From NCBI RefSeq assembly GCF_964204645.1, contig NC_134028.1:11083263-11147262 (forward strand): a stretch of 64,000 nucleotides of DNA, in the 5' to 3' direction. Positions 11,937 to 62,734 of the stretch are shown piece after piece (within the stretch, counting starts at the first letter, position 1; each line of letters begins with the position of its first letter). This DNA comes from Tubulanus polymorphus. Its lineage: Eukaryota; Animalia; Nemertea. The notes beneath the pieces were generated by a model, which was not told the DNA's origin, made no database searches, and saw nothing but the letters and a program-made list of their open reading frames with translations. A program made the translations under genes and the position numbers.

Positions 11937-11942
11937 CTTCTT

Positions 11943-24200: not shown

Positions 24201-24261
24201 AGTAACTCGAGATCCTTGGATACGATCTCCTCGTGATGCACCTGATAGCGTCCAATTTGCT

Positions 24262-33899: not shown

Positions 33900-35193
33900 A
33901 CATCAGAAACAGTAAACTAATAAACTAAACTAATGCGTATGTGATGATATAGAGCAAAAGTGGTCAGACAGTTCTATGCGTATTGATAGACCGTCCTCCC
34001 TGTTCGATCTAAATCAGAACATACCTCAAGTGTCAAAGTCGGGATATGTAGGTGTAAGTAATAAAAAAGGCGTTGGGTTTAATTAATAGACTACGCTAAT
34101 GGTGTCGATTGTGATTCTGTTTACTACGTTCAGTCCGTTTGCATCCAGGTGTATAAGTACATTGTTAAGAGTCCAAATATGAAGGTTTTGTTGAAGCATG
34201 ATTTCTTGGTTTAGGCGAACTATTAGCGAGTTTTTGAAATAAATTATAGTGTTCATGCGGCCAGAGCCTTGTTCTAAATTGTAGTGATTTTTGTACAAAA
34301 TGGATTGTGCGACAAAAGGTAGTTCGCGAGTCTGCGTTTGAAGAAATCTGTTTCTATTGTTTTAGTAATTCCTGTGTAGACGATGTCTTGAGTGATATTT
34401 ATTGGTGTGTCTAGTATGCGTTGAATGATTGGTTGTATAGATGAATATAATTGCTGTGCTTCTGTGCATGAGAATACTACATGGTCATTCGTTGCCGCGA
34501 GTCCACAAATTTTACAATTTGGATCAGTTTTTATTTTCCAAAGTACTAGTTTTGAAGCTGTTGCCAGAGTATTATGCAGTAATTTCCAATGAATATCACT
34601 AAATCAATATGTTTATTATAAACTTCATTCCAAATTTCCGGCCAGTTCAGATCAGCAGTTAACATTTCAGTAATTTTGGTTTGCCCTATCGGTGTGATTT
34701 GATGGAGATTTTTTAATAATAGAATTCGATAAATTTGAGATGATAAAAGTTTTCCTGTAGTACACACTATATTACCAAATTGTACATAGATTTTTGGTAA
34801 TTCATCGGGATCTAAATTTTGGTCAGACAGAATTAGTTTCCAATGTTGCGGTATCGCATTGTATATACATGTGTGTTTAAATTTATTTGTTAATGGAATT
34901 TCGTTAAATGCTTTGTAGTTTCCACGATTATCGAATAGATGTCGTAGATTGATTATACCGTGATGTATGTATTCCGTGAAATTGGTTTTCTTGTTGAGCT
35001 TAATTTTTGGGTTGCCAAAAATAGGTTTTTGCAGAATTTCGGTAATAGTCTCAGTTGTAACTAGATGTTGTTGAAAAACTGTCCATGATTTTAATAAATG
35101 TCTGTAGTAGTCATTTGTAATGACTTTTTGGGGTATTTCATTGTGAATGATGTTTGAAATATTCCAGCCTGGGCCTAGATATTTTTGCAGATT
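33900..35193 (-). mobile_element. L1/Tx1 LINE ORF2 C-terminal remnant (3' flank of the Polinton target)
   Basis: WKLLHNTLAT....WKIKTDPNCKICG....DHVVFSC zf-RVT-like motif in hand translation. Confidence 0.75.
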
Positions 35194-35278
35194 AGTAATT
35201 GGGAAAGTAGGCTTTCATACCAGAGGTCGAAGGTCGACCACTCATCACCACAAGTAATTTTTTTTCCTTATAAATGGG
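35194..35278 (+). repeat. Left terminal inverted repeat
   Basis: Exact reverse complement of 52465-52549. Confidence 0.97.
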
Positions 35279-38200
35279 GGAGAATGAACACCAACCAGAA
35301 AATAATAATGTTAATAAAAATCAATATTATTGCACATATTGTAAAAAATACATCGATAAATCCCAAAAATCACGACATGAAAAATCTGCAAATCATATAA
35401 AAAATGTAATAGATTTTGAAACTCCAAAAAATTCCAATGAAAGAAAAGAACGATTAGAAAATATGAATGTGGATGAAATAAAATGTGAAGTTTGTAATGA
35501 ATTTATAGTAAAAAGGAATTATAATAGACATCTCGAATCACAAAAACATTATAAAAATTTAAATAAAAATGTTTTAGGAACAGAATATTTTGATAATAAA
35601 CCTCAACAAGTAAAAAAATCAACCTCAAAAACTAAATCCATTTCAAATAAACCTTACATGGAAAATGTTAGAAATTATATTGATTCACTAGAAATAAAAG
35701 ATACAATTGAAATTTTAGAAACATTACGTAGTAAAATTGGTCCAGCAGCTATTATATTTAGATTTTTTAAAGGAACAACAATAGAAGATTATAGCAAATT
35801 TAGTGAAGTAATAGAAAAGATACTAGATTTGATAACAGATGTTGAATATCCAAAAATTAGTATCTCTGGGAAAGTAAGTTTTTTAAAGTCAGAAGATAAA
35901 ATGGATTATAATATTCAAACACTCTCTGAAGAAAAAATTTCAAAAACACAAATAAAAGAGAAGTTAGAAAAAATATTTAATGAATTTAAACGTCATATTG
36001 AAGAAAGATATTTTGAGGGTTCTGGCTTAACATTGAATGAAATTATATATTTAGATTTAAATGTTTATAATACAAAAAGGAATAAAACATCAAAAAGTAA
36101 TAAAATGTTTAAAAATGATTCAAACTTTACAACAGAAAAGGATATTAAAGCATCATCTTATATTAAATTACCATTTACAACAAAAGCAGTAATAAATATT
36201 CAAAATGAAGATAATAAATGTTTTCTATGGTCAATTATTAGTTGTTTACACCCAACAGAAGATATGACGCATAGTTTTAGAATAACAAATTACCGGAAAT
36301 ATGAAACATTATATAAAATTGATCAATATCCAGTAACTATAAAAATGATTCCTAAAATAGAAAAAGTTAATAATTTAAAAATAAATGTATTTGAATTAAT
36401 GCAATTACCAAAGACAAAAGGTGAAAATATTAAAGATTATACATTGGAAGCTTTATATTTAACAGAATATTATGATGATGAAAATGCTATAGATTTGTTA
36501 TATTACAAAAAAGATGAAAATGAACATTATACGTGGTTAAAACAAATTGATTTATTCTTTAGAACAGAAAGTGATCATCATAATAAAATTTATCTATGTA
36601 GAAAATGTTTATCTAAATTTATGACTGAGAATGCGTTACTAAAACATAAAGAATTATGTGATAATAAAGATTTTTGTAAATTAATAATGCCAACAGAAAA
36701 CGATTATAAATTGAAATTTACTAATCATAAATTTAAGAATATTGTTCCATTTGTAATTTATGGGGATTTTGAATCGTTGAATAAAGAATTAACTGATCAA
36801 GATAGAAAAGAAATATATAACAAAAAGCAATTATTAAAATCAATGGATAAAGGAAATGAATTAAATGAAGACACAATACAAGACCCGCCAATTATAAATA
36901 CAATTAAAAAAGTTCATCAAAGAGCTGCTGCTTATGGAATTTATATAAAATCAAATTATCCTGAATTATATGAAAGTCAATATATTTCTTTTAGAGGTGA
37001 AAATGTAATTAATGATTTTTGTGATAAAATGATTGAATTAGAAAGTGATTTTGCAAAATTATTAAACAAAAATAAAAGAATAGTTATGACAAAAGAAGAT
37101 GAAATTGATTTTAATTATGCAACTCATTGTTGTTATTGTGAAAAACGTTTTTATTCATTTGATAAAAGAGTTAGAGATCATGATCATTTGAATTCAAAAT
37201 ATCGTGGAGCTGCTCATGAAGATTGCAATTTACAAGCTAAAAAAGTAAATTTCGTACCAATATTATTTCATAATTTATCAGGATATGATACCCATCTATT
37301 TATAAAACAATTATCGGGAAAATTGGGCGCAATTAATCAAGAAATAGAAGAATATAATGCTATGAATGAAGCAAATGTAAGAAAATATGATTTTAAACTA
37401 TTAGCTAAAACATCTGAAAATTATATTTCATTTCAATTTGGTTGCATTAGATTTTTAGATTTTTATAGATTTCTAGCAAGTTCATTAGATAATTTATCAA
37501 AAAGTTTAGTGATAATGATTTTGTTATAACTCGATATTATTATCCAAATGAACAAGATTTTAAATTATTGAGATATAAAGGCACAATTCCTTATTCATTT
37601 TATAAAACACACAATGATTTTAATGTAACAGAATTATTAAAAGATCAATTTTATGATCAATTAAAAGAGGAGTATGTGAAAGACGAAGTTTTTAATAGAA
37701 CATTAAATATTTGGAACCATTTTAAGATGAAAAATCATGGCGAATTAGTTGATTTATATTTAAAATCAGATGTTATGATATTGGCTGACATATTTGAAAA
37801 ATTTAGAGAAGTTAATTTGAATCATTTTGATCCTTGTTATTGCTACTCTAGTCCTGGTTTAACCTGGCAATGTGGTTTAAAATATACAAATGTAGAATTA
37901 GATTTATTAAAAGAACCAGATATGGTTTTATTATTTGAAAAATCAATTAGAGGTGGAATTAGTGGTGTTATGGGAGATAGATATTTTAAAGCAAATGATG
38001 AATATAAATTATTATATATTGACGCCAATAATTTATATGGTTGGGCAATGATGCAACCTCAACCATATAAAAATTTTATATTAACAGAAGTTGAAAATGA
38101 TAACAAAACTGATTCGGAAAGCGCAATTGCGAGTTTAAAAGATGAAGCACCAATTGGTTATTTCTTCGTAGTTGATTTAGAATATCCTGAAAATATAAAG

Positions 38201-40332
38201 TTTAAAACAAGAAACTTACCTTATTGCCCAGAACATTTAACTGTAGATGATAGTTATTTAAGTGAATACCAGAAGAAAATAAAACCGAAAGATCATGTTT
38301 TTACAGAAAAATTAATACTTACTCAAAATAATAAATACAATTATATTGTTCATTATAGAATGTTAAAATTTTATCTAAAACAAGGAATGAAATTAAAGAA
38401 AGTACATAGATATATTGAATTTAATCAATCGAAGTGGTTAGAAAAATATATAGATTTCAATACTCAACAGAGAACAATATCAAAAACAGATTTTGAAAAA
38501 GATTTCTTCAAATTAATGAATAATAGTTTTTATGGTAAAACATGTGAAAATATTAGAAATAGAAATGATATTGAATTAGTAAATAATTCTGAAAGATTAA
38601 GACATTTACAATCAAATCCTAGACATTTAGGAAATAAAAGATTTGAAGATTATTTAACAGCAGTTAAATTAAAAAGAACATCAATGAAATTTAATAAACC
38701 TATATTTATTGGTTCGACTGTTTTAGAAGTATCAAAATTATTAATGTATGATTTTTATTATAATGTTTTACAACCACTTTTTGGGGAAAAGCATATTGAA
38801 ATATTATATTTTGATTCTGTAACAGCTGACACCCCAATATTATTAAAATGTAATGATAAAATGTTGATAAGAAGAATTTCAGAAATAATTCCAAAACAAA
38901 ATGAATGTTATATTTCATATGGAGAAAAAGAATTAATACAAATAAATGGTTTAATGGATGTTTGGACAAGAAATGAATGGAAAAAATTAAAGAATATTAT
39001 TAGGCATAAAACAAATAAGAAAATCTATAGAGTTAGAACTAAATTAGGATTTGTTGATGTTACAGAAGATCATAGTTTAATTAAACGAAATGGCGATGAA
39101 ATAAAACCAACTGATATAAAAATTGGAGATGAATTATTGCATAAAAGATTTTCCCAAAGAATGAATCATATGTCATTTGATGAAATAATTGATAATATTT
39201 ATAATATAGAACCCGAAACATTAGAAGAAAAAGAATATTTTATCAAAGGATTTTTCATGGGTGATGGTTCAGCAGGTGTGTATAATTATGTTAATCGCAC
39301 TCAATATTGCTGGTATTTATGCAATCAAGACTTAAAATTATTAGAAAGAATAAAGAAATTCTGGGAAGAAGTTTATCCAAATAAAACATTTAAAATCATG
39401 GATGTTATGAAATCAACAGCAGTTTATAGAATACTTGTAAATAATCCTAGAGTTTGCTATAAAATATAATGATGAATTCTTTATTCATGCAATAGTTAAA
39501 AGTAATACTTCAACAAAAGAAAAGATAGTTCCAGATTATGTATTAAATGCAAAAAATAATTTAAGAAAATGGTTCTTCATTGGATTCTATGCTGCAGATG
39601 GTTCAAAAAGTTTCAAAAATCGCAAAACAATATTTTAGCTCAAAAAGGAAAAGTTGCTATATCAGGATTGAATATATTATGCAGTTCATTAGGATTTAAT
39701 ACGAATATTGGATTGATTAAATCTAAACCAAATTGCTTTAATTTAAGACATGTAGAAAATGAGTTAACAGAAGAAGTTAAAGATTTATTTGAAATATATA
39801 ACCCAACTGACTATGTTTATGATTTATCAACAGATGATGGAACATTCAATTCTGGGTTCCCATTAATCCAAAAAATACCGACGCCTACATACTAAAAATC
39901 AAGACAAATGACATAACAAAAGACTTAAAAACATTAAAACATTATTTTGATTTTAGCAATTATCCCAAAGATCATGAACTATTTAGCAATGATAATAAAA
40001 AGATTCCTGGGAAATTTAAAGATGAATTAGGGGGTGATGAAATGATTGAATTTGTCGGGATAAGAAGTAAAATGTATAGTTACAGAACAAAAGATCATGA
40101 AGCTAAAAAGTTAAAAGGAATAACAAAACATGTGGTTGATAAACATATAGAATTTCAAGATTATATAAAGTGTTTATATAAATCAATTGTAATGAAACAC
40201 AAAATGAATTGTTTAAGATCAGAAGATCATGAGATGTACATTAATGAAGTTGAAAAAACTAGTTTAAATCCATTTGATGATAAAAGGCATATTTTAGATG
40301 ATGGTATAAAAACATTACCTTATGGTTATTAA
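35274..40332 (+). pseudogene. pPolB: Protein-primed family B DNA polymerase (zinc fingers, OTU-like protease, exonuclease with EndoVII/HNH insert, polymerase), intein-containing, frameshifted
   Basis: NKCFLWS...EHY; YGDFES, FHNLSGYD, YLKSDV; RDHDH...AH..CN; YIDANNLYG, KLMNNSFYGK, YFD|TDA, RSKMYSY; frameshift at ~37510 plus three in the intein. Confidence 0.95.
38816..39876 (+). mobile_element. Intein with LAGLIDADG homing endonuclease, inserted at polymerase motif C
   Basis: Block A SVTADTPI; block B VDVTEDHSL; blocks C/D/E FIKGFFMGDGS, KIVPDYVLNA, FFIGFYAADGS; block F YVYDLSTDDGTFNSG; end LIQKN followed by +1 Thr. Confidence 0.92.
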
Positions 40333-40592
40333 AATGGATCTATATCATCAAACTCGAAATCACTATTGGTTTCTTCATTTTCATTTAATTGTTTAGTTTC
40401 TTCTTCCATTCCATTTTTTTCATTTAAATAAAGTTCTATCTTGTTCCACATTTCATCTCGCTCTCTTTGTTTCTTTTTGTTTGTTAATTCGTCAAATGGA
40501 ATTATAATATCTAGGTTTAAATAATTTACAATCTTATTTAAAAAGAATTCATAATTTATTGAATCTGTTATTCTATTTTCCAAATGATACAT
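40329..40592 (-). CDS. Small acidic-tailed viral protein (or C-terminus of the zinc-finger gene)
   Basis: ORF coupled by TAATG to the upstream ORF; converges on the pPolB stop. Confidence 0.5.
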   Translation of the reverse strand: MYHLENRITDSINYEFFLNKIVNYLNLDIIIPFDELTNKKKQRERDEMWNKIELYLNEKNGMEEETKQLNENEETNSDFEFDDIDPF

Positions 40593-41627
40593 TAATATTT
40601 GTTTGAATATTTTTTTATATTTTCCATATCTTCTTTAAATTTAGGTTTTTCATAATAATCGTTAGATAATAAATATAAATACATTTTCTTTTCTTTTGTG
40701 TTAAATGTTGACGGAATAATTGTATTTATAATATCTTTTTTAGTTATTTCACCATTTTTATTTTCTATTATTTTCATTTTTTCAAGCCATTGCATATATT
40801 CTGGTGTATGATCTTCCATAGAAAATATTTTAAAAATTTCATCTAGATAATTTAATTTTGGTTCTATGAGAAAATCTCTAGTTTTTTCTTCACCCCATAA
40901 ATTCCTTTGCCATCCACAATCAACACAAAATATCTCAGTACCCTCTTGTCTTAAGGTCGCATAAATACATTGTGGGCATTTTTGTTTATAATTTATTGGT
41001 AATAGATCTTCATTAAGCTCTTGGTATTTTCTTACGTTTTCTTTATGTTTTATTGTTCTATTATGTAGATTTGAATTACTTGCTGTAATAATCAATTTAC
41101 AATATTTACAATAATATGTTTTTCTTGTTTTTCTTTTCTAACTTTTCAACTGTTTCTTCATTATCTGGTAACGTTTTCTCATATTTTATTTTTTCTAATA
41201 AATTATTTTTTCTTTCATTAAATTCAGTTTCAAATTTATTATAAATTTTATCTATATGTACTTTACGAAATTGATGATTCTCCCAATCTTCTATATTTTC
41301 AGGGCTATATTTTATTCGAGAAGGCTCGCAGAAATGATCTTTTATATTATCCTTATCATAGAATAAGAAAGGTCTTTTCCAAATAACTTCAGGTTCAACT
41401 TCAGCAGAATTACTATTACTTTCATTACTATCAACATTAGCCGTTGCGCCATTAATTCTACACTTCTCTGAATGTTTTTTAACATAATTTCTTGAGAATA
41501 ATTTATTACATTTTGGACAGTTTATTTTAGGGGGTTTATAATTTTCATCATGTTTTTTCATATGTCGAGCCATATTACTTTTTCTTAGAAGTTCACCACA
41601 AATTTCGCATGCTATCTTCTCATCCAT
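40592..41627 (-). pseudogene. Multi-zinc-finger viral protein, single frameshift near 41130
   Basis: CEIC..H...H, CPKC..H...C, YYCKYCKLIITASNSNLHNRTIKH upstream of and in frame with the second ORF, CPQC..CVDC ribbon; TAAATG start. Confidence 0.7.
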
Positions 41628-41695
41628 TTATTTAGGAAAAATTTTATTAAAATTAATTTTTAGTGATGATCGGTAATTTTTTTATGTTATAAATA

Positions 41696-42454
41696 ATGGT
41701 AGAATTAAAAGAATACACAATATTTGTAGATTCTAGAAAACTTACAAATTATAAATCACATAATTTACTAGTACAATTAGATAGAGAATTTAAGAATTGT
41801 GTTGATTTAAAATTAGTAAATATAAGTTTATGTAACTCATTTTACAATATATCGGATAAAAGTCTAGAACATTTAATTTTTTCAATCTTTTACAAAAAAA
41901 TGAATGAATGGTATTTTATATATTTAAAACCAGGATTATATAATTTAGATACATTAGCACAAGAAATTAATAGAAAAGCTCGAGCTAAATTAGGAAGTGA
42001 TTCTAAATTTAATATTAGAATTTTAAAAAGTGATAGTTCTAATAAAATAAAGATTAGGTTAGATAATAACGAACAATTTAAATTTACAGTAAGAAAACCT
42101 TTAGCTAAACTGTTAGGAATTAACCCAAATATTGTTACAGCACACGCAGAAGGTAGATCAAACTTAATACCTTTTACACACTTTTATATTTATTGCAATT
42201 TGATTGACCCAACAAAAACATTTGAAGCAACTAAAGATACAATTTGTAATTCTGGTTTATTAAATATTTTACCATTAAAAAATGTCAAACAATTTGGAAC
42301 TCAAATAAATTATAATTTAACTGAATGTGATTTCAAACCTTGTATTCCACATTTCAATAATTTTAAATTAGAAATAAGAAATCATAATGGTTATTTAATT
42401 GATTTGAATAACTTTCCTGTAATTTATGAATTAGTTATAAGATGTAAAGAGTAA
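41696..42454 (+). CDS. Putative minor capsid protein (penton, single jelly roll)
   Basis: VDSR, KLVNISL.NSFYNI, KPGLY, LAKLLGI, YIYCNLID, LEIRNHNGYLIDLN pattern typical of Polinton/virophage pentons; 252 aa. Confidence 0.75.
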   Translation: MVELKEYTIFVDSRKLTNYKSHNLLVQLDREFKNCVDLKLVNISLCNSFYNISDKSLEHLIFSIFYKKMNEWYFIYLKPGLYNLDTLAQEINRKARAKLGSDSKFNIRILKSDSSNKIKIRLDNNEQFKFTVRKPLAKLLGINPNIVTAHAEGRSNLIPFTHFYIYCNLIDPTKTFEATKDTICNSGLLNILPLKNVKQFGTQINYNLTECDFKPCIPHFNNFKLEIRNHNGYLIDLNNFPVIYELVIRCKE

Positions 42455-42470
42455 TTTTTTCACTATATAA

Positions 42471-42827
42471 ATAATTATAACTGTTGGACCGAGTATATGT
42501 TTTGGATTTGATTTTAAACGTGAGAAAGAAATGAAATTTAACATTAATGATGTAATTACACATATTAAAAATATTGCATTTTCTAATGAAACAACATTTG
42601 AGTATAAAACAACAATAGATAAAGAAACTTTAAATGTAGAAAAGATTACTAATTTAATTAGAGAATCTTTAAGATTTTATGAATTAGATGAAGATTTTAT
42701 CATCGATGATATTAGAAAAATAATAATTGAAATATATACAAATGAAACTAGTAATAAAATAAATGTTGAATTAATCATCACTAAGATAACTAGATATTTT
42801 GAAGATAGTAATTTTTTTGATAAATAA
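42471..42827 (+). CDS. Small viral protein of unknown function
   Basis: ORF 42531 extends in frame to TAAATA at 42471, a probable mutated TAAATG start; homologue at 6150. Confidence 0.65.
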   Translation: MIITVGPSICFGFDFKREKEMKFNINDVITHIKNIAFSNETTFEYKTTIDKETLNVEKITNLIRESLRFYELDEDFIIDDIRKIIIEIYTNETSNKINVELIITKITRYFEDSNFFDK

Positions 42828-43044
42828 ATGAGTGATAATAAGTGGATAATAACTGGATTATATAATGGAGCATTACTATCAGTTGGAACTGTTGGTTATT
42901 CAATGGTATTAAAAAAAGTATTCAAAATGGGAAGTGTTAATGTTGATAGATTTGATATAAATGATATCTTGAAGTTAACATTAGCAATTACTTAATTTAA
43001 CTATTGATTATTTGGAAAAACAAAAATATATTCCTCCCATATAA
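42828..43044 (+). pseudogene. Small hydrophobic viral protein (not in the ORF track)
   Basis: MSDNKWIITGLYNGALLSVGTVGYSMVLKK...DYLEKQKYIPPI; lesion near 42993; homologue at 6436. Confidence 0.7.
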
Positions 43045-43068
43045 ATGCATAATTTTTTTACTAAATAA

Positions 43069-43491
43069 ATGGCCTCTGCAATTATAACTATGATAGGATC
43101 GGCAATTGTTAACGCTTTGGCATTTACTGGTGGTGGATATTTATTTAAACATATTGATAAAAATAGTTTATTAGGAGAACAAAGAAGACATAACTTAGCA
43201 TTAGAGAAATACAATAAAGCAGCAGAAGAATATAGAGAAAAGAGGCAAAACTATATGGATTATATTAACAAAGAATTATATGATCAGAAGATTTCACATA
43301 GAGATTTTCAATCAGTTGATGATGCAATGAGTTTATATAACGCGGTAACAAATAAAGAAAAATTACATCTATACAAACCCAAATTATCAGATTATTATAC
43401 CCCAAGTAAAGAACAACAGAAATATGAAATAATATGGATTTTAGGTGGAACTATTATTGTTATATTTGCTGCTTATAAGTTTACTAATTAG
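43069..43491 (+). CDS. Small membrane protein with hydrophobic N-terminus, ExxRxNxxxE motif and C-terminal TM
   Basis: MASAIITMIGSAIVNALAFTGGGYLF; EQRRHNLALE; IIWILGGTIIVIFAAY. Confidence 0.8.
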   Translation: MASAIITMIGSAIVNALAFTGGGYLFKHIDKNSLLGEQRRHNLALEKYNKAAEEYREKRQNYMDYINKELYDQKISHRDFQSVDDAMSLYNAVTNKEKLHLYKPKLSDYYTPSKEQQKYEIIWILGGTIIVIFAAYKFTN

Positions 43492-43510
43492 TAATTTTTT
43501 TTCTAAATAA

Positions 43511-43936
43511 ATGGAAGATAATATTGATATTATTCCTCATGATATAAATAAAACTAGATTAAAAACATATTTAGAAAAACAAATATTAGAATTTGAAAGT
43601 GACTTAAAGATAAAAAAGAAAAAATATTTAAAAAGTAAAATTATATATTATCTTATTATTAGTGGTTCGGTTACAATTAGTTCTGTAATAACATTTTTAG
43701 CAATATTCAGCCCATTAACACCTTTAGCTATATCAATTGGTGTGTTAGGATTAAGTTCAAGTGTTTTAACCGGTATAAGTTCAAAATTGAATATTAAAAG
43801 TAATAAAGAAAAAATTAAAACTAATATAAAAGAAATTAATAAATTAAAGAATACACTAGATTATATAATAAGTTTAAATGGTCATATAACAGTTGAAGAA
43901 CAAGATAAATTATTAAAAGAATTAGTTAATTATTAA
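43511..43936 (+). CDS. Two-TM viral protein with flanking coiled coils
   Basis: Hydrophobic hairpin in the middle; homologue at 7122. Confidence 0.8.
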   Translation: MEDNIDIIPHDINKTRLKTYLEKQILEFESDLKIKKKKYLKSKIIYYLIISGSVTISSVITFLAIFSPLTPLAISIGVLGLSSSVLTGISSKLNIKSNKEKIKTNIKEINKLKNTLDYIISLNGHITVEEQDKLLKELVNY

Positions 43937-43952
43937 TTTTTTAATTATATAA

Positions 43953-45341
43953 ATGGTAGATAGTTTTCCAAAAGCTTTCCAATATGATAAATCAATTAAA
44001 TATAATATTCCAGCAATAGATTTTAATAAAGATATTACATATAGAAATGAAGTTTTAGATTCATTAACTAATTTAGAAATTTATGTTACTGAAACTAATA
44101 ATTTTAATGCAAAGATGGAAAATATATTTCATGTATATTTAATTAATTCTAAAAAATTGAAAGATGAAAAACAATGGTTATTAAAATCTAATATGAAGTA
44201 TTGGCAGAACCAATTAAATTTTGCAGTTTATTGTTCAACAACAGCATGTGGAATTAGTTGGAATGATCATTTGAATAATTCTAAATATAAACTAATTCAA
44301 AGTTTATTTAGATTTCATACATACTTTCAAATCAGAATAATATTAAATGAATTAGAGTGCGCTTTACCAGGATCAAGATATTTTAAAGAATTAGATAATA
44401 ATATTAATTTATCTAAGTTTTATAAAATTTGCAATGAATTTAATATAGATATAAATAATTCTGATTTTAGAACAAAAATTGGAGCAATAAGATCACTTCC
44501 TTGCCCTAAAAAGATTGCAGAATATTGTGCACTTCCCATACCATCTAATAGTTTTTATAATATCTATAATAATAAATTAGGTTATGGTAAAATAGAAACA
44601 AAGGATTTAGAAACATAAAATTTCAATAAATTACCGAAATTTTATGATTATTTAAAACAAGAAAACAATAATGGTTGGGTTTATTTTATTTTAGAAAATA
44701 GTGAAGGTATTACTAAATCAGGTATAGAAAGAATAAATCAATCAATTAGAACTTATTTGATATGTATTTTAGGTGCGCAAGTTGAAACAAGATCCCCAAT
44801 AATTGGAAATTTAAATACATCATTCGATACACAAAAACATTTTAAAGTTTTATTTGAAGATTCCATACATAATGATAAAAATAGATCGATTCCAGAAAAC
44901 ATTGTAAGATATCAAAATTATTTAGATAAATCACATATTAGATTAAATTATTGTATAGGCCCTAATCTATTAATTATTTCTAATGATTTAGTATTAAAGA
45001 TGGGAAACATAATTGGTTATAATAATCTAATTAAAACTGCAACAATAAATAATTCATTTGGATTGAATGATATAAATAAAAAGATAATTACTGCTCCAAA
45101 ATTAATGGAAGGTGAAAAAAATAAAAAACATTTTCAATCAACAGAAACTAAAACTAAGAATATTAAATTGGATAATGATTCCAAAATAAAAGATTACAAT
45201 ACTACAGAAAATATTAAAACTGATAATATTCAACATGATATAATTAAAACTGATAATGATAATAAATCCCATGAAAATACTAAATTAGCTTTAACTTGTA
45301 TAGGAATTGTAATCGGAGGAATATTATATTTTGAATTTTAA
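43953..45341 (+). pseudogene. Conserved viral protein with C-terminal TM anchor; one in-frame stop at 44616
   Basis: ORFs 43953 and 44757 are in the same frame and open between them; homologue at 7571. Confidence 0.8.
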
Positions 45342-45357
45342 TTTTTTTATTATATAA

Positions 45358-46815
45358 ATGGATGTAGAAGGTGGAGAAGATATTGGAATGGATAATTTTG
45401 ATGAACCTGGCATAACTGATGAACAACCACCTGATTTTGATGAAACAAGTTTTAATGATGGTAATGAGCCAGAATATAATAATAATTTGAATATGCCTGA
45501 TTATATTAAAAATGCTGAATCACAATTAGATCCTGAAAATTTAGATCCAGATTTAGTAAAACAAGATTTAGATAATTTAAACAAAATACCTAAATTAGAA
45601 CGTATAATTGAAAATTCTAAACTTAACATAAATGATGAAGACGTTGGACCTTTAGCAGATCAATTAAAATTTTTAGATAATGGTAAATGGTATTATCATT
45701 TGAAAGGTAATTATTATATTGATATCACTTATAAAAATAATAAAAATAAAATATTATCAGAATCAACTTTAGAAAAATTAAAACCAGATAGAATTAAAAT
45801 AATAAGTAATAGTAATGAAATAACTGATGTTACACAAAAAGAAATAGATGATAATATAGATGTATTTAAACAAAGAATTAAAGAATTATTTGAAATAATC
45901 AAAAAGAAATCAGAAACAGAAACAACTTCTGAACAGAATAAAACTTCCAAAAATAGTAAACTTAAATCAAATAAAGTTTCAATTGAAAAACTTTTACCGA
46001 ATGGATTAATTGATGCAACAGATCAACAATTAGAAGATGTAAATATATTTTCTGATGAAGCAATTAGAGAAATTATTAGTATAAGAAATGAAGCTGATAA
46101 AATTGCACATAATAAAAGTATAAGAGATCAAAAAATTATGTATTTGGAAAAAGAATTAACAAATGCAAATAAAGAAATAGAACAAATAAAGTCTGATTTA
46201 GATCATCAAGTAATTGAAGAAATAGAATATACGCAAAGAGAATTACGTTTAGAAAAAGAAATTAGTAATTTAAAAGATAATTTAGAAGTACAGAAAGAAG
46301 AAATTAAATTATTATTAAAATCATATGATTATAATATAAATAGATTAAAAGTTATTTTTAAAGATTTGTTGATTAAACCAAATTCTGAAATTTCACTGAA
46401 AGATAGAATAAAGTTATTATTTAAATTAGAAGGAATAACAATTCTTTCAATTCTAACAGCTGTAACTATGTTATTTACAACAATTGGTTTAGCAATATCA
46501 AATGCTTTGAAATCTACTCCTACTCCCAATAAACCGGATAAACCCCCGAATGATAATAATTCTATACAAGATAAAGTTAAGGATGGTTTAAAGAAATTAG
46601 CAAAATATTTATGGGAACTATCTAAAAAATCTGCTGCAGCTTTACCAGGAATTAGTGCATCAATTGTTGGTTTTATATTGAAATCTGCTGGGAATATTCT
46701 TAACCTTGCTGCTGAACATATTATTTTATTTTTAATTACAGTTGTAAGTGCTATAATTTTTGGGTTAGTAAATATGATATCAAAAAGATATCAAGAAAAA
46801 AATAATAAAAAATAA
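45358..46815 (+). CDS. Acidic/coiled-coil protein with several C-terminal hydrophobic helices
   Basis: 485-aa ORF; heptad region; GITILSILTAVTMLFTTIGLAI, PGISASIVGFIL, IILFLITVVSAIIFGLV. Confidence 0.8.
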   Translation: MDVEGGEDIGMDNFDEPGITDEQPPDFDETSFNDGNEPEYNNNLNMPDYIKNAESQLDPENLDPDLVKQDLDNLNKIPKLERIIENSKLNINDEDVGPLADQLKFLDNGKWYYHLKGNYYIDITYKNNKNKILSESTLEKLKPDRIKIISNSNEITDVTQKEIDDNIDVFKQRIKELFEIIKKKSETETTSEQNKTSKNSKLKSNKVSIEKLLPNGLIDATDQQLEDVNIFSDEAIREIISIRNEADKIAHNKSIRDQKIMYLEKELTNANKEIEQIKSDLDHQVIEEIEYTQRELRLEKEISNLKDNLEVQKEEIKLLLKSYDYNINRLKVIFKDLLIKPNSEISLKDRIKLLFKLEGITILSILTAVTMLFTTIGLAISNALKSTPTPNKPDKPPNDNNSIQDKVKDGLKKLAKYLWELSKKSAAALPGISASIVGFILKSAGNILNLAAEHIILFLITVVSAIIFGLVNMISKRYQEKNNKK

Positions 46816-46839
46816 ATAATTAATTTTTTTGTTTAATAA

Positions 46840-48084
46840 ATGAGTGGGAGTTATATAAGTCCTTCTAAGATTTCTAGAATATCTAATGCTATTAAAGCAG
46901 AAAGATCACATCATATAATTACTCATAACCCTTCAAATATTAATCCCGATGAAACTTTATATGTTAGAATTCCTAGATTAACACAAAATACTTTTTATGT
47001 TCCAAATAGTATTTATTTATCAGCCGATATAAAAGTAACTGGTCATGATAACAATTATGTTGATGATAATGTTGGAAGATATTTGATTAAAAAATCAACT
47101 ATAAAGATTGGTCCAGAAACAGTTTTCTCATTAGATGATTATAATTTATTTATGCATTATAAAGATTTATGGTTAACTAAAGAAAATAGAAATAATATGA
47201 TATTTCAGGGTATTCAATCAGAAAACCATAATAAATTAAGATCAGGAGCTAATGACGCAATAGTAACTCGTGCCACAGATAATTTGATTAAAAAGATTTA
47301 TGGAAGCAAATATAAAATTCCATTAGACTTTGAATTGATAAATAATAATGCACCTTTATATAAATACGCAATTCAAGATATTATATTTGAGATAACATTT
47401 GCTCCTGTAAATGAAATTGTATTATCTGGCGTTGTTAAAGATATGGGTTATAAATTATCGAATATATGTTTAGAATATAACACAGTAACTAATGAAAATA
47501 TTGCTAGCACAATTCAAACTCAATACAATCAAGGATTTTCATTATCATATGATTATATTGATAAATTTGAAACTGTAACTATTAATGCAAATGATGAAAT
47601 AATTAATGAGAATATTAACTTCCCAAGAAGATCTATTAAAGGTATATTAATATTTTTTACCATTGCAACATATTTTAATGGTGCAATAAAGGTAGATAAT
47701 TATTACAATCCTGAAATAACAAAAGTTGAAATAACTATCGAAGGAATAGCAAATAAAATATTTTGTCAAGGAATGAGAATGATTGATCAATGGCCAGAAA
47801 TTAGAAAACATTTTATGAATGAAAAAGTAAAATCATTTGAAAATTGTAATATTAATCAAATTGATTATTATACCGGTAATAAATATGCATTATGGTTAGA
47901 TTTTAGAACAACAGAGGATAATTCATTACATGGTTCTGGGAAAAAACTACAGAACACTAAAGATGGAATACAATTATTCATGAAAAAGAATAGAGGGGAC
48001 AAAAATTTTAAAATGCATATTTATATTATATCTGATGCACAATTAAATATTGTAAATTCACAGTTAGATAGTATTCAATATTAG
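46840..48084 (+). CDS. Putative double jelly-roll major capsid protein
   Basis: Intact 414-aa beta-rich ORF; THNPS.I...ETL.VRIP, KIPLDF, LWLDFRT, C-terminal MHIYIISDAQLNI; position next to integrase and ATPase. Confidence 0.75.
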   Translation: MSGSYISPSKISRISNAIKAERSHHIITHNPSNINPDETLYVRIPRLTQNTFYVPNSIYLSADIKVTGHDNNYVDDNVGRYLIKKSTIKIGPETVFSLDDYNLFMHYKDLWLTKENRNNMIFQGIQSENHNKLRSGANDAIVTRATDNLIKKIYGSKYKIPLDFELINNNAPLYKYAIQDIIFEITFAPVNEIVLSGVVKDMGYKLSNICLEYNTVTNENIASTIQTQYNQGFSLSYDYIDKFETVTINANDEIINENINFPRRSIKGILIFFTIATYFNGAIKVDNYYNPEITKVEITIEGIANKIFCQGMRMIDQWPEIRKHFMNEKVKSFENCNINQIDYYTGNKYALWLDFRTTEDNSLHGSGKKLQNTKDGIQLFMKKNRGDKNFKMHIYIISDAQLNIVNSQLDSIQY

Positions 48085-48114
48085 AAATATAAAGTTAAAA
48101 TTAACGATATATAA

Positions 48115-49242
48115 ATGGGAGGTAAAAAAACTCCTAATACTAAAGAACAATATTTAAGAAATTTATATTACAACCCTGAGAGTTCGGTTGCTTATTCTTC
48201 TACTAAAAATATATGGCGTAAAGTAAAACAAGATAAATTAGATAAGATAATCCCACACAATTTAGTTAAATATAAAGATATAAATGAATTTATGTTAGAA
48301 CAACCAACATACACAACACATAAAAAAATTGTTAGAAAATATAAAACTCGTAAAACTATGGTAAGTTATGTAGATCAACAGTGGCAAGGAGATTTAATTG
48401 ATATGAAAAATGTTAAGAAAGATAATGATGATTATTGGTGGTTATTGAATATAATTGATATTTTTAGTCGTTATGTATGGAGTTTCCCACTTTATAGAAA
48501 AGATGCTGTACAAACATCAAATGTTTTAAGAAAATTTCTTTCGGATGATTAACTAAAACCAGAAAAAATACAATTTGATGATGGAAAAGAGTTTGATAAT
48601 TCACTTGTTCATGAACTCTTAGACAATCATAATATTAAATATTTTTCAACAAAATCGGATAAAAAAGCAGCAGTTGTTGAACGATTTAATAGAACATTAA
48701 GAACAAGAATGTGGAAATATTTTACAGCAAATAATACTTTTAAATGGATTGATGTTTTGCCAAAATTGATAGAAGGATATAATAATTCTTATCATTCTTC
48801 TATTGGAATGAAACCTATTGATGCTAGAAAACCTGAAAATGCTGAAATTGTTTGGAATAATTTATATGGAGCATTTCTTGTAGATGATTTTGGTGAACCT
48901 AAATTTAAAGTTGGTCAAAATGTTAGAATTTCTAAGTATAAAAAGATATTTGATAAAGGATACGATCGAAATTTTACTAGAGAAATATATAAAATAAAAA
49001 AGGTAATAACAACAAAACCATATGTCTATAAATTAGAAGATTTAGATGGTGAAGAAGTTGATGGTTACTTTTACGAAGAAGAATTAAGTTTAACTACTGA
49101 AAATCTAGAACAAGAATATAAAATTGAAAAAGTATTAAAAACAAAAACTATTAAAAGAAAAAAATATTCTTTAGTAAAATGGGTTGGATGGCCAGATAAA
49201 TTCAATGAATGGATATTATCAAGTAAAATTAAAAATATATAA
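48115..49242 (+). pseudogene. Retroviral-type (rve) integrase with C-terminal chromodomain; in-frame stop at 48550
   Basis: WQGDLID, QFDDGKEF, VVERFNRTL (D,D,E); YKIEKVL...LVKWVGWPDKFNEWI. Confidence 0.95.
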
Positions 49243-49851
49243 ATGAATAAAGAATTATTTATATTTGAGCCTCATAATATGTTAATATCTGGCGTAACAA
49301 ATTGTGGAAAAACTTATTTTATATTAAATTTATTAGAAAGTGTTTATGAAAACTATTTTGATAATATAGTATTATTTTGCCGAACGTATGAATTTAATCA
49401 AACTTATGATAGAAATATTACTAGAAATAATAAATTTATTATATTAGATCCTAAAACAGTAAAAGAAAATTTAGATAATTGTATTAAAATAGCAATTGAT
49501 ATTTATAAAGGATCAAATACATTATTCATTATAGATGATTGCGCAAATTTACATGATTCAAAAGTTAGAGAAAGTGAGTTATGCTATTTAGCTTTCTCCG
49601 GGAGACATTTTGGGATAACAACTTGGGTTTTAAATCAAAAATATAATTCAATTGTTAAAGACTTTAGAGAAAACATTAGATTTCTAGTTTTATTCTACAA
49701 TAAAGATAGAAAATCGATGAAAAATGCACTTGAGGAAAATGATATTATTCCACATGATTTACATAATGAATATATGGATAAGTTGAAAAATATTAAAAGA
49801 TCAAAATTACTATTTAGATTACAACACCCATTTAAATATGAATTTATTTAA
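49243..49851 (+). CDS. A32-like genome-packaging ATPase
   Basis: Walker A GVTNCGKT, Walker B LFIIDD, GRH and LNQ motifs. Confidence 0.92.
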   Translation: MNKELFIFEPHNMLISGVTNCGKTYFILNLLESVYENYFDNIVLFCRTYEFNQTYDRNITRNNKFIILDPKTVKENLDNCIKIAIDIYKGSNTLFIIDDCANLHDSKVRESELCYLAFSGRHFGITTWVLNQKYNSIVKDFRENIRFLVLFYNKDRKSMKNALEENDIIPHDLHNEYMDKLKNIKRSKLLFRLQHPFKYEFI

Positions 49852-50115
49852 ATTCAATTAGTTTGTTAATCTAGTTGAATTCTAGTTATTGGTAGTTGTA
49901 ACAAAAATCAAATAGATTTAACAATATTTTAACTAGCTTGTTAATCTAGTTTAATTCTATTTACATTATAGTTGAATTCTAGTTGTTAGTAGTTGAAACA
50001 AAAATCAACTAGATTTAACACGAAATAAACAAAAACAACAATATTTCAACTAGCTTGTTAATCTAGTTGAATTCTAGTTACATTCTAGTTGAATTCTAGT
50101 TGCAACATCACAACT
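49850..50115. repeat. AT-rich CTAG-containing internal repeat array
   Basis: Recurrent CTAGTTGAATTCTAGTT / AACTAGCTTGTTAATCTAG units. Confidence 0.7.
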
Positions 50116-50133
50116 AATTTTTTTGTTATATAA

Positions 50134-50728
50134 ATAGTAGGTGAAAAGAAAATAAAATCTAAAAATGGTGATGTTCCAATTTAGGAATTTAGGAATAACA
50201 GAAAACAAATTAATTCCAGATGATGGTGCTTTAAATAATGTTACAACAAATAATAATTATGAATATTATCTTTATTGCAAACATCAATTAGAAATATTAA
50301 TAGCATCTGGAAAATGTAAAAATTTTGTCGATAAAAATTTAACTTATAATGAACTAGATATAATGAAATCAGTTGAAATTATTAGATTATTTAAGATTTA
50401 TGAAGCCTCGAGAACAGCTAGAATTAATGACGCGATATCAGAAAATGCAGTAAAAGGTTATAGTAAATTATGTTATTATATACTACCAATTGAAGATGAA
50501 AATAGATTATAATCCGATTTAAAAAATGATTATTTAGTTATGACTGAATTAAATAAATGGATTGGATATTTATCGTTTCAATTAGGTGGATTTATGACAT
50601 AATTATCAACTGGGGTTATAACATTTTCAAATATTGAAAGTAAAAATATTTCTATAATAAATGAGCGAGGTGAAAGAAGTGAAGGAATTAACTGTGAAGA
50701 AAAAACCGAGAACACAGAAACAAATTGA
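50134..50728 (+). pseudogene. Homologue of 12295-12867 with two nonsense codons and a damaged 5' end
   Basis: TAA at ~50510 and ~50600 align to Tyr and Leu in the intact homologue. Confidence 0.8.
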
Positions 50729-51029
50729 ATGGTCTCGGCAATTAGGAATTAAATCACAAGAATATAAAAAAGCTGTAAAAGAAAAAATAAGTAATAAAAA
50801 TGTTAATAAAAATGGTGAAAATATTGTTATTTCTACTCCTTCTGATAATAGAATATTTGATAAATGTCTATATTTTACAGTTGGATTTGTAATTGTATTC
50901 ATTTTGATTGGGTGTAATTGGTATAAGAAATCAAATAAAATTCATGATATTAATAATTCTGAAACAACTGCTATCAAAAATGAAAATACTTCTGAAATTC
51001 CAAAATTGATAATAAAAAAAATGGATTAA
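50661..51029 (+). CDS. Small single-TM viral protein
   Basis: Basic N-terminus, LYFTVGFVIVFILIG; homologue at 11943. Confidence 0.75.
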   Translation: MSEVKEVKELTVKKKPRTQKQIEWSRQLGIKSQEYKKAVKEKISNKNVNKNGENIVISTPSDNRIFDKCLYFTVGFVIVFILIGCNWYKKSNKIHDINNSETTAIKNENTSEIPKLIIKKMD

Positions 51030-52144
51030 TATTTTAGAAAAAAAGCAAAAAAAATAATTGAATATCTCACTACTTTTGTCTATCTATGTGGAGCAATTAA
51101 ATTGTCCACATAAGTCATTTCGGATTCTAGATATTCATTATTTTTATTAATTTATTTTGTTTTTACTTGAATATTGTATTACAGTCGTTTCTTATTATTA
51201 GTTTTTTCTTAAATTGAAAGATGGCAGCACTGGGTGTGATGCTAAAATGAATATTTGAATTTGAATTTGAATTTGTTTATCAATTAACATAGTAATTGAT
51301 TACTAATTTGATTAAAAATTATATCATAATTAAGTTAAAAATCCATAATTTATTTATCAGTTTTCATTCTTATATTCTTTTCATTCGGAATAATTTATAA
51401 TTTCAAATTTCACATATTTTTTTAACACCAGCAACATTTACTTAGGTGTTTTAGCTAAGTATATAACGCAATTCATTCAACCACTGGAGTGCCGCCGGGC
51501 TTGGCTTGCAGGGGCATTTCGAAAATGCACCTTTGTCCACCCTCCGTGGTTCTCCTTCAGTTTCGACTTTCGATCCTCCTTTCGGGGGTAAGGGGTTGAT
51601 AGGAAATGCATTAGGCGTCTTTAATATAATGTGTTTCCTGTCAACCATTGAAGGAGAATTGGTGAGGTGTGGGTCACAGGGGTGTAAGTAGAAATGCTTG
51701 GGGATAGGTATCTCGTGGCGCTTCTCAATAACGGGATGCTTATCCCCTAAAAACTCTGCGAGTCAAGCCGGGTGGTTTTGCTAAAACTTACCGTAAAAAC
51801 ATTGAAATATTCCTTTTAATCACGAGAGAGAATGATGACTATCCTCCTGTCGTCACGGCCGAGCTAATTTAAATAAACCTCGCTTTCAGCAACCAATGAA
51901 AACGTGGTAGTTCAATGCCGGCTAACTGGCCTGTGTGTATTGTATGTACTGCGTGCTTATTATATAACTGCTAGCTATCCAATATAACAACAACGTTGTG
52001 CAACACCTGTTTGATTGATCAATATTCAAATGAAGCACTCTCTTATAATAACATGTAACAGATGTTTGACTGTATGATTGTAGTTGTTTATAAAACGACT
52101 AAGGTCATTTTGGATTCTAGATATTCATTATTTTTATTTCTTAT

Positions 52145-52469
52145 TTAATCAACAATTTCTAAATCATGATGACCGTCTTCATTTTTTCCATGATATATTA
52201 TTTTAAATCCTACTAAATCTTTCAATTCCTCTGTACTCAATGAAACCCATTTATCGGGTAAAAACACTTTAAATTCTCGTGATGTACTAACATTACAGTA
52301 GCTTAAATTAGCTGATACTTTCTCTCCATATTTAGTTTTTATCTTTTCTAATTTCAATATCTTATGTTCAATTTCTTGTAACATCAACTAACTTTTTTAT
52401 TTCAAATTGTTTTTTTGTTGGTTTAATTCTGTTATTTATTGTTGCTAAGAATGCTTTTCTATCTCCCAT
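52145..52469 (-). pseudogene. Right-arm gene starting at the ATG inside the right TIR, frameshifted
   Basis: MGDRKAFLATINNRIKPTKKQFEIKKL from 52469 continues in another frame into ORF 52145-52387. Confidence 0.6.
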
Positions 52470-52549
52470 TTATAAGGAAAAAAAATTACTTGTGGTGATG
52501 AGTGGTCGACCTTCGACCTCTGGTATGAAAGCCTACTTTCCCAATTACT
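52465..52549 (-). repeat. Right terminal inverted repeat
   Basis: Exact reverse complement of 35194-35278. Confidence 0.97.
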
Positions 52550-52760
52550 CAGATTGTAGTTGATAAGTGGTTTCCAGTGTGTTGGTTTTAGCGCATGTTT
52601 AAGTCTTCGACACCAAATGTCTCAAGTCACCCTGATTTACGGTACCCGTACTGAGCCGTCTGTACTGAATGTGTTTGTAATTCCTTTATTTTACTGTGTT
52701 TTTGGTTTTGTTGAATGGAACTGGCTAAATGCGTTGGCTTACCTAACAATGGGTTGAATC
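52550..52760 (-). mobile_element. L1/Tx1 ORF2 remnant (5' flank of the Polinton target)
   Basis: Joining across one CAGATT copy restores the frame WCRRLKHALKPTHWKPLINYNL-QKYLGPGWNI. Confidence 0.75.
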
Positions 52761-53226: not shown

Positions 53227-53774
53227 CTAATGTCTATTTATTAATTGATGAGACCTGTTTTTCTTGGATATTTTGCTTACTTTTTGGGGTACATACCTCA
53301 TTTATGTCTTAACAGAATGCCAAAAGTCGCGGACAACAACTGAATATCCGATATATTTCCAGTTCTGTACCAATTAGATGGATTGGCAAAAAGACTCCTT
53401 AAGTCCAGTTGAATGAGAGAGAAAATCCTCCATTTTGTGAAATTTCTTGAATTTTTACATTGTCACCATGCCTACGAAATGAAGTTATTTTTCTTGTGGG
53501 GTCTCAACAACTAAATCAGGGTGGCGTAGGCATGGTAACAATGTTCAAATCCAAGAAATTTGACAAAATGGAGGATTTTCTCTCTCATTCAACTGGACTT
53601 AAGGAGTCTTTTTGCCAATCCATCTAATTGGTACAGAACTGGAAATATATCGGATATTCAGTTGTTGTCCGCGATTTTTGGCATTCTGTTAAGACATAAA
53701 TGAGGTATGTACCCCAAAAAGTAAGCAAAATATCCCAGAAAAACAGGTCTCATCAATTAATAAATAGACATTAG
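53227..53774. repeat. 250-bp near-perfect inverted repeat with a 48-bp spacer
   Basis: Arms 53227-53476 and 53525-53774 are reverse complements with few mismatches. Confidence 0.9.
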
Positions 53775-56093: not shown

Positions 56094-57370
56094 ATTAGCC
56101 CACTTGGGACTTTAGTCCCAGCGGGCTATTGCGTTCACTTTTCGTCCGTCGTCCGTCCGTAGCGTCCGTCCGTCCGTAGACGGAATCCAGTTGTTTTGGG
56201 AAGTTTTGAAGACGCTTCAAGGTAATGTCTTGATATTTGGTTTACACATGTATCTACCCTAGACACATCTTCAGCCCAAAAACTGGCCCTGTCAGATTCA
56301 AGATGGCCGACTGGCAGCCATTGTTGTTCGCCAAAATCAGCACTTTTTACACATTTTTGAACTTTTTGAGGGAAATTTTGAAGATGCTTTGATCAATTAC
56401 CTTGATCTTTCGGATATATGTGAATTCCCCCAGGGTTCATCAGCATAACAAAAATTGGGTCGATCGGACTCAAGATGGCCGTCCTATGACCTTTTTAGTG
56501 CCCAAAAATGTTAATTTTGGCCCAAATTTTGAGTCCTGTAGCTTCCTACTGGTTTATCATTTCTCATTGCAATTTGTGATGGGTATTCTTTGGAAAGGGA
56601 TGTTTTATACCTGAGACAGGTATTTTTCATCAGCCAATTATGACGCAATTGGCGGCCATCTTGGTGTAAGCAGTACTCATTCGTAAGTGGGAAAAAGTTT
56701 TTCCACATTATATTGATATCTAAGCGTATTTTGTTACCACAATCATTTAGAAAGTTGTAGCTCATAACGTGTTCTATGATTGTGGTGAGTTTCAAGGTCA
56801 TTGGTTTTTGTATATGGCCACCAGGGGGCGTTGAATAATGCAATATCTTAGTATTTCTATATTATATTCGTATCAATGCATATTTTGTAACCACAATCAA
56901 TTGCAAAGTTGTTGCTCATGACATCATCTATGATTGTGGCAAGTTTTAAGGCCATTAGTTATTCTATATTGTCACCAGGGGGCGTTGAATAGTAGAATAA
57001 CTTAGTATTTCCTTATTATATTGGTACCTAGGCATATTTTGTTACCATGATCAATTACAAAGTTATAGTTCGTGACATGTTCTATGATTGTGGTGAGTTT
57101 CAAGGTCATTGGGTTTTGAATATGGTCACCAGGGGGCGTTGAATAGTAGAATAACTTAGTATTTCTATATTAAAGTGGTAACGAGGCATATTTTGTTATC
57201 ACAATCAATTACAAAATCGTAGCTGCTGACATGTTCTATGATTGTGGTGAGTTTCAAGGTCATTGGATTCTGTATGTGGTCACCAGGGGGCGTTGAATAT
57301 TGAAATTGTTAGATTGTTGAGCATTTGGAACCACTTCCCAAGTGGGCATGGTGTCCCTGGACCCCTAGTT
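56094..57370 (+). repeat. HINE/DINE-1-like element, complete
   Basis: TTAGCCCACTTGGGA...GGGCTA 5' hairpin, (CCGT)n, ~155-bp CACCAGGGGGCGTTGAAT tandem units, 3' TCCCAAGTGGGC plus short hairpin; flanked by T tracts. Confidence 0.8.
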
Positions 57371-59168: not shown

Positions 59169-59243
59169 GCGCTAACCGTACTCCGTAACCGGAGCTATCG
59201 CATTCCGTTTATGGACTCCGTAACTGGGGCCACATTGTTGTAT

Positions 59244-62609: not shown

Positions 62610-62734
62610 TTATTATAAAATTTTTTATTAAAGATTAAAATTTTAATACATAACACAGTGTAATTGTGAATTTGTTATATTTAATCCCGCGTCAGATATG
62701 ATATAAAAATGCATTTTATAATTGTTGCCTCCTT

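Follow-up and report, generated by a model that had tools for sequence, protein, structure and literature searches.

Gene starts in a nemertean Maverick/Polinton

Do animal Mavericks/Polintons act as autonomous viruses or need a helper, and by what means are they transcribed? A locus of the nemertean Tubulanus polymorphus bears on both questions. We analyzed a window of 64,000 nucleotides (nt) from contig NC_134028.1 (assembly GCF_964204645.1, positions 11,083,263 to 11,147,262 of the forward strand), in which an element of 17,356 bp occupies positions 35194-52549; all coordinates below count from the first letter of the window. Nearly every gene of this element begins at TAAATG, with the start codon inside the motif, and we regard it as very probable that the motif is a functional start signal.

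An initial annotation of the window had claimed that almost every gene starts at a T-tract followed by TAAATG, as in a poxvirus late promoter. At each of the 20 coordinates that it listed, and on the strand given, TAAATG is indeed present with the A of its start codon at that position, and the 15 annotated heads of the element comprise 12 TAAATG (with the terminal site counted at both ends) and three TAAATA. For a comparison blind to the motif, the first ATG after a stop in open reading frames (ORFs) of at least 100 amino acids (aa) was set against all other ATGs on both strands. TAA preceded the ATG at 10 of 16 ORF starts in the element versus 34 of 650 other ATGs (p = 3e-9), and at 5 of 6 starts versus 14 of 246 in a second copy at 6100-13300 (p = 8e-6); in the remainder of the window the figures were 1 of 15 and 39 of 1425 (p = 0.35). 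Two misses, 37727 and 39569, belong to the polymerase gene, being pieces that lie downstream in this broken gene, and that at 48709 is a piece of the integrase, across which an intact relative aligns. The miss at 45000 is in frame with 43953, with one stop between them, and those at 41696 and 50165 have a variant T-tract with ATAAATA upstream. The ATG within the motif is also the needed start: Met1 of the major capsid protein (MCP) is the same in all 33 sequences of the alignment, with no further Met before residue 105.

Since the element is 76% AT, chance in an AT-rich sequence with an A-biased start context had to be considered. We give this explanation practically no credence, because neither the non-start ATGs of the element nor AT-rich control loci show the enrichment: six control loci with at least 70% AT carried TAAATG at 4 of 39 starts. 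A relative with 62% AT carried it at 7 of 7 starts (L006, below), and position -3 is fixed as T instead of A. Checked in this way against AT-rich sequence and other loci of DNA polymerase B of the protein-primed type (pPolB), the motif is real at starts and specific to a lineage, and the objection from AT content and Kozak bias, which the initial annotation had itself raised, fails.

The heads and genes of the element are as follows.

35255-35276, forward: TAA-T8-CCTTA-TAAATG head of the polymerase gene
35274-40332, forward: pPolB gene, broken into at least four ORFs (35274-37529, 37727-39469, 39569-39895, 40042-40332), 38-45% identical to most pPolB loci of viral contigs
38816-39895, forward: broken intein inside the polymerase gene, its C-terminal limit approximate and set by eye (TIGR01445 33.7 bits; PI-PkoII E 5.6e-6)
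40329-41627, reverse: TAAATG head, gene of a zinc-finger and VLTF3-like late transcription factor, with two or more breaks (around 41110-41130 and around 40592; Pfam Pox_VLTF3 E 4.4e-5)
41674-42454, forward: T7 and ATAAATA head, 252-aa ORF divergent from the VLTF3-like gene (weak DUF5901 match, E 0.002)
42452-42827, forward: T6 and ATAAATA head (about 42468), 98-aa ORF whose stop is the TAA of the next TAAATG
42809-42995, forward: TAAATG head with its T-tract within the preceding ORF, 55-aa ORF
43050-43491, forward: TAAATG head, 140-aa ORF
43492-43936, forward: TAAATG head, 141-aa SLATT-like two-helix membrane protein (weak SLATT_fungal match, E 0.0035)
43934-45341, forward: TAAATG head, gene with one interrupting stop at 44616-44618
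45339-46815, forward: TAAATG head, 485-aa ORF with no family assigned
46821-48084, forward: TAAATG head, double jelly-roll MCP of 414 aa, from its predicted fold
48096-49242, forward: TAAATG head with A-rich upstream sequence, rve integrase with chromodomain, broken after 48552
49224-49851, forward: TAAATG head within the integrase end (its TAA is the integrase stop), A32-type packaging ATPase
50115-50512, forward: T7 and ATAAATA head (about 50131), gene with broken 5' part; homologues at 12867(-) and in relative L001 begin at TAAATG
50643-51029, forward: TAAATG head, 122-aa ORF
52145-52488, reverse: TAAATG head inside the right repeat, short broken ORF

Layout of the signal

To describe the layout, we compared 11 non-redundant starts of the element with 32 TAAATG that are not starts. 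A run of at least five T within -19 to -6 was present at 8/11 starts versus 2/32 non-starts, as had been claimed for most starts. TT at -14/-13 (10/11 versus 4/32), TAA at -19 to -17 (10/11 versus 1/32) and A at -4 (11/11 versus 11/32) were likewise concentrated at starts, and T stood 10 nt upstream of TAAAT in 10/11 versus 11/32 (p = 0.0014) and 11 nt upstream in 11/11 versus 13/32. The start signal therefore extends beyond the motif first described, with A at -4 and TAA at -19.

In the vaccinia late promoter, TAAAT(G) overlaps the start and a T core lies 5-7 bp upstream (PMC5294985), and T is conserved as the 10th nt upstream (PMC11980589). As far as its letters go, the signal of the element matches this published layout: TAAAT(G/A) lies at the start codon in 15 of 15 annotated heads, and both the T-rich core 5-7 nt upstream and the T at the 10th nt are present in the element, the latter being weaker in the relatives L001 (3/7) and L006 (2/7).

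Other features that had been ascribed to the T-run fared less well. It lies directly behind the previous stop at some sites (43511, 43953 and 45358), though not at 35274, 52469 and 41627, which have no same-strand gene upstream, nor at 42828, where it is within the previous ORF. The short gaps between genes were borne out: of nine junctions examined, seven have gaps of 0-30 nt. A role as poxvirus early terminator was not: TTTTTNT follows one of five free gene ends (that of the VLTF3-like gene) and none of those of polB, the ATPase, the 122-aa ORF (orf122) and the right-end ORF, and it follows 0 of 7 ends in L001. Its scarcity inside ORFs (8 versus 15.2) is not specific to a terminator, because A-runs are depleted too (58 versus 89), a general deficit of homopolymers.

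RNA processing or translation might also leave TAAATG at gene starts, as the poly(A) signal of the upstream gene, by stop-start coupling on polycistronic RNA, as a TATA box or as a trans-splice acceptor. AATAAA is contained in 6 of 12 sites and TATAWAWR in 6 of 12, and the TAA is the stop of the upstream gene at 42828 and 49243. The motif nevertheless stands at terminal and divergent heads: the 12 listed heads without a same-strand upstream gene all carry it (11 TAAATG, 1 TAAATA), which rejects a poly(A) signal as the general cause. Stop-start coupling was rejected as a general cause since TAA ends a long frame at only 2/11 starts of the element, 0/7 of the second copy, 0/7 of L001 and 1/7 of L006. 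A TATA box serving its own gene would place the RNA start downstream of the invariant Met1, and a trans-splice acceptor finds no AG within -16 to -1 at 12/12 sites. We consider explanations of this kind very improbable.

Relatives and control loci

Two further relatives lie in the window itself.

6152-15459: second relative, rearranged and decayed, 69-87% DNA identity, with TAAATG heads at 6436, 6681, 7122, 7571, 8599, 12302(-) and 12867(-)
62187-62630, reverse: third fragment with a TAAATG head (62609) and an ORF of 140 aa that has its homologue in a 408-aa gene of L001

Outside the window, the metagenome relative L001, with 75% MCP identity and another gene order, carried TAAATG at 7 of 8 starts; the remaining start belongs to a gene that is cut off. 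The seven motif-bearing starts of seven in L006 come from an IMG/VR contig of 9034 nt with 38% GC and a pPolB 39% identical to that of the element. Among 23 other pPolB-related viral contigs, many with rve and protease, TAAATG stood at 13 of 216 starts, and -3 was A in 133/216 and T in 47/216. These 23 are not all independent (L024 and L025 have identical polB, L021 and L026 are close); L010, on the same contig as L005, was omitted, and L001 and L002, in one 90% MCP cluster, count as one lineage. A pPolB tree of 25 rows (L028 translated off-frame) gave no resolution and thus says nothing on L006 as the closest relative.

The signal could also be a relic: an ancestor would have parasitised a pox-like virus, and the copies of today would owe their spread to transposition at the level of the host, with a motif in decay. 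Copies in the window are broken in several genes, three heads read TAAATA, one integrase head is without the motif, and so are more distant capsid relatives. Against decay, A at -4 is identical in 12/12 orthologous head pairs whereas positions -40 to -18 match in 3-7 of 12 (the pairs were picked for TAAATG, so that identity at -3 to -1 is circular), and in L001 the motif has outlasted a change of gene order and a divergence of 25% between the proteins. We therefore hold a relic to be improbable.

Several observations on these relatives stand apart from the signal. L006 carries a protease-like/integrase/chromodomain fusion, and in the viral contigs L005, L023 and L029 an MCP of virophage type occurs together with a relative of the element's pPolB. 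Capsid and ATPase homologues are filed under Bartonella (P0044, P0235, P0252), and the capsid loci L003 and L004 lie in a Burkholderiales and an archaeal metagenome-assembled genome; these homologues and loci probably come from eukaryotic contamination. The second copy is interrupted by a pair of inverted arrays (9255-9477 and 10137-10501), built of 21-22 bp repeats that contain GTCGAC, around a 93-aa ORF, probably an inserted small transposon. An HNH/endonuclease VII-like gene is found in the second copy (14708-15145, reverse) and in L001 (5568-6083), with no match in the main element.

A VLTF3-like gene under the same signal

Beyond what the initial annotation contained, a zinc-finger/VLTF3-like late-factor gene stands under the same TAAATG promoter. 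All three pieces of the broken gene at 41627(-) match one intact 697-aa protein, P0300, whose residues 320-520 group with VLTF3 clusters in the Atlas (score 0.93; 27/30 matches VLTF3; 201/256 features). The C-terminal piece reached 23.7 bits against Pfam Pox_VLTF3, below the cut-off of 25, a search for its longer relatives returned empty, and the intact P0300 and P0301 had no Pfam VLTF3 match. The product is likely a member of the VLTF3 family, as the sequence comparisons suggest, and a divergent one because Pfam does not call the intact proteins. VLTF3 in some Polintons has already been published (PMC11131425). In the gene of the element and in P0300 and P0301 the VLTF3-like domain is fused behind several C2H2/U1-type zinc fingers, and a search of 1.84 billion proteins found two representatives only.

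Which polymerase reads the signal

No RNA polymerase subunit, capping gene or helper was detected among the ORFs scanned with Pfam, NCBIfam and PHROGs, which leaves a helper or host Pol II to read the signal.

Nuclear transcription of an autonomous element is the main rival to a helper and has to be taken seriously, though we think it rather unlikely. Host Pol II, with the element's zinc-finger/VLTF3-like factor and possibly TBP or YY1, would then start at TAAAT or at an initiator (Inr)-like TAATT about 18 nt upstream. Set beside the Inr consensus and the YY1 motif, the TAA at -19 to -17 in 10/11 starts is Inr-like and AAATGG, present at 7/11 starts, resembles the YY1 core. Integration requires reaching the nucleus, and the element encodes the VLTF3-like factor itself. 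TBP and YY1 at vaccinia late promoters are named in titles cited by PMC5294985. Mriyaviruses keep VLTF2/3 without an RNA polymerase, and the argument has been made that they are nuclear (PMC11253617), so the factor fits this explanation equally well. On the other side, no separate early class is seen that would make the factor first, its own gene being under the same motif, and the TAA at -19 is found in 3/7 starts of L001 and 0/7 of L006. Internal AATAAA is not avoided either, at about 5 per kb inside the ORFs of the element (70 versus 63.9+-4.1; L001 26 versus 26.7; L006 12 versus 7.1), a result with a weak control; splice-site-like motifs in ORFs are neither depleted nor enriched, at counts too low to inform. 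Finally, T at -3 of an mRNA is unfavourable to scanning ribosomes, and the control starts prefer A.

The initial annotation had proposed a pox-like helper. What stands of this is a real, lineage-specific start signal with pox-late geometry; the helper polymerase is the leading reading that we infer from it, with roughly an even chance of being right. The RNA polymerase of a poxvirus-like helper would read the promoters of the element in the cytoplasm, and the element would be an integrating satellite (provirophage). We favour a helper because genes for replication, integration, the capsid and the late factor share one promoter class with no early class, because the start codon lies within the putative initiator with T at -3, a difficulty that a slippage leader would solve, and because the ORFs hold AATAAA without avoidance, a motif that is missing after several free 3' ends. 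Poxvirus polymerase is described as slipping at the late initiator and adding a 5' poly(A) leader (PMC4542343, PMC6211774, PMC12722222).

Under a helper, RNA would start within the AAA of TAAAT, and slippage would add an untemplated 5' poly(A) leader that replaces the leader absent from the DNA and removes the unfavourable T at -3. The zinc-finger/VLTF3-like protein may help direct the helper polymerase to the element. Since polymerase, integrase, capsid and VLTF3-like genes all fall into one promoter class, the element would be silent until the late machinery of the helper is present, as with mavirus, which shares the late motif of Cafeteria roenbergensis virus (CroV) and is silent until CroV infects (PMC8547959).

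Several observations weigh against a helper, beside the missing polymerase and capping genes and the mriyavirus precedent. An element that integrates with a 6-bp duplication, and that apparently has many related copies, needs access to the nucleus and the germ line. Poxviruses are not known from most invertebrate groups. A comparison of the element with one candidate RNA run gave only matches of 18-26 nt. The integrase head of the second copy, 11936(-), lacks TAAATG and is one clear miss outside the element; the T5 run fades in relatives (L001 3/7, L006 1/7), and the motif in its exact form is absent from two capsid relatives, L003 (0/4; its MCP has TATATAAAATG) and L004 (0/4). Every one of the 12 sites overlaps either TATAWAWR or AATAAA, and the nuclear control for AATAAA, host transposon ORFs, is underpowered (2 versus 2.3).

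More broadly, and with somewhat less than an even chance, this animal Maverick lineage may consist of integrating poxvirus virophages that are silent in the germ line until activated by an invertebrate pox-like virus still to be discovered, whose late polymerase would switch them on and be diverted by their own zinc-finger/VLTF3 adaptor. If so, the promoter predicts the existence of the helper, a pox-like virus in the host, and a heritable anti-poxvirus defence in animals. If instead transcription is nuclear, Pol II would read a promoter of pox type together with a viral VLTF3, a case relevant to the use of VLTF3 by small viruses that have no polymerase. In either case a pox-late-type initiator at every gene makes the question of a helper testable and offers a sequence signature by which Polinton families could be grouped according to their life cycles.

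Ends, gene content and surroundings of the element

The ends of the element are defined by the following features.

35188-35193: left target-site duplication, 6 bp, CAGATT
35194-35281, forward: left terminal inverted repeat, 88 nt, 5' AGTAAT, holding a full promoter-like site (99% repeat match)
52462-52549, reverse: right terminal inverted repeat
52550-52555: right target-site duplication

Because the left repeat holds a promoter-like site, the same site is copied at both ends of the element. An empty-site joint 35187/52550, with 6 letters common to both sides, was found in 3 of 4 read sets; its flank is possibly repetitive, and the joint fixes the ends of the element and says nothing on polymorphism. 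Summed contig depth was far higher over the element than over its flanks, a difference that is not convertible into copy number.

With terminal inverted repeats and a 6-bp target-site duplication, the element belongs to the known class Maverick/Polinton. pPolB, rve integrase, A32 ATPase and double jelly-roll MCP are all present, polB and the integrase being broken in this copy; intact pPolB relatives are single ORFs of 1250-1300 aa. Scans of the ORFs with Pfam, NCBIfam and PHROGs gave no match to a protease, several ORFs being without a family, and thus no adenovirus-like cysteine protease as in group 1; gene content (SLATT, VLTF3, no protease) suggests group 2. An Rfam scan of the element had no match. 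The predicted MCP fold is a double jelly-roll (pLDDT 84) with iridovirus and PBCV-1 capsids as best matches, while its sequence had no match in PDB, phage records or Pfam; one named relative is from the bivalve Mactra antiquata (39%). MCP and ATPase scans of viral contigs returned no matches. Membership in the virophage family Lavidaviridae was rejected: the MCP of the element has no Pfam match whereas that of L005 matches Sputnik MCP families, and no protease was detected. The 252-aa ORF (41696-42454), with its weak DUF5901 match, is a candidate minor capsid protein.

The intein of the polymerase gene had been called giant-virus-type. It is a real intein, its TIGR01445 score being above the cut-off, but the giant-virus assignment finds no support, as its look-alikes are mixed and all score <0.9. 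A LAGLIDADG-like motif was seen in it by eye, and three pPolB relatives in the alignment read DT at its position, where the intein is apparently missing.

Repeated TCTAGTTGAAT-type units occupy 49860-50102, between the ATPase and the next gene. FLYWCH and long interspersed nuclear element (LINE)-like ORFs lie on the flanks of the element. Inverted repeats of 88 and 66 nt at 15727-29882 bracket 14 kb with LINE-like, reverse transcriptase and FLYWCH ORFs, probably a nested DNA transposon. A near-perfect palindrome with 250-nt arms lies at 53227-53774, and a 154-bp repeat forms three arrays (56696-57303, 58644-59189 and 63347-63954).

Comparison with known systems

Provirophages (mavirus and endogenous mavirus-like elements with CroV; the polinton-like virus (PLV) Gezel-14T with Phaeocystis globosa virus) resemble the element as integrated small dsDNA viruses that have a promoter motif in common with a larger cytoplasmic virus (PMC8547959; bioRxiv 2022.07.28.501842). 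Those systems belong to protists, their motifs are of Mimiviridae type (TCTA, AAAATTGA) and their helper is known, whereas the capsid of the element lies outside the virophage family and its helper would be a predicted one. PLVs reported from entomopoxvirus occlusion bodies, two of them having MCPs beside the mavpol 2 clade (PMC11296320), are a further precedent for a helper. By their description, these (AHEV_PLV1/2 and CBEV_PLV1; Barth et al. 2024) are about 12 kb long, with a protease and without rve, and are tied to poxviruses by co-occurrence; neither "promoter" nor "TAAAT" occurs in the main text of PMC11296320, and its supplement holds no promoter analysis.

Poxvirus late and intermediate promoters are alike in TAAAT(G) at the start, the T core and the T at the 10th nt (PMC11980589, PMC5294985), and A-rich variants at the integrase and ATPase heads of the element are similar to the intermediate class (PMC4542343). 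Compared with these, the element is an integrating one of 17 kb with no RNA polymerase detected; in addition its signal has a fixed TAA at -19 and a fixed A at -4, and its pox-type initiation and poly(A) leaders are predicted.

The yeast pPolB elements pGKL1/2 replicate by protein priming, have no known capsid and are not known to integrate. They share with the element a linear form, and in them a TAAAN initiator goes with slippage-made 5' poly(A) leaders (PMC6211774). Unlike the element, they carry genes for a pox-related RNA polymerase and a capping enzyme of their own and have a separate upstream conserved sequence (UCS) element.

We found no published report of the motif in Polintons, in a search that reached few subscription journals and took in Polinton papers without their supplements; the word "promoter" is absent from the main text of PMC8502044, PMC11131425 and bioRxiv 2026.06.19.733378, and further literature considered comprised bioRxiv 2024.03.23.586382, PMC11788076 and PMC12917281. 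Animal Polintons (Polintoviricetes, "adintoviruses") are described in the same three sources as elements of 15-20 kb with repeats starting AG, a 6-bp duplication, pPolB, rve, A32 and a double jelly-roll capsid, all as in the element; SLATT and VLTF3 genes have already been reported in them there, and bioRxiv 2026.06.19.733378 states that no Polinton virions have been observed so far. From these known Polintons the element differs in having no detected protease and in that one pox-late-type signal heads all its genes.

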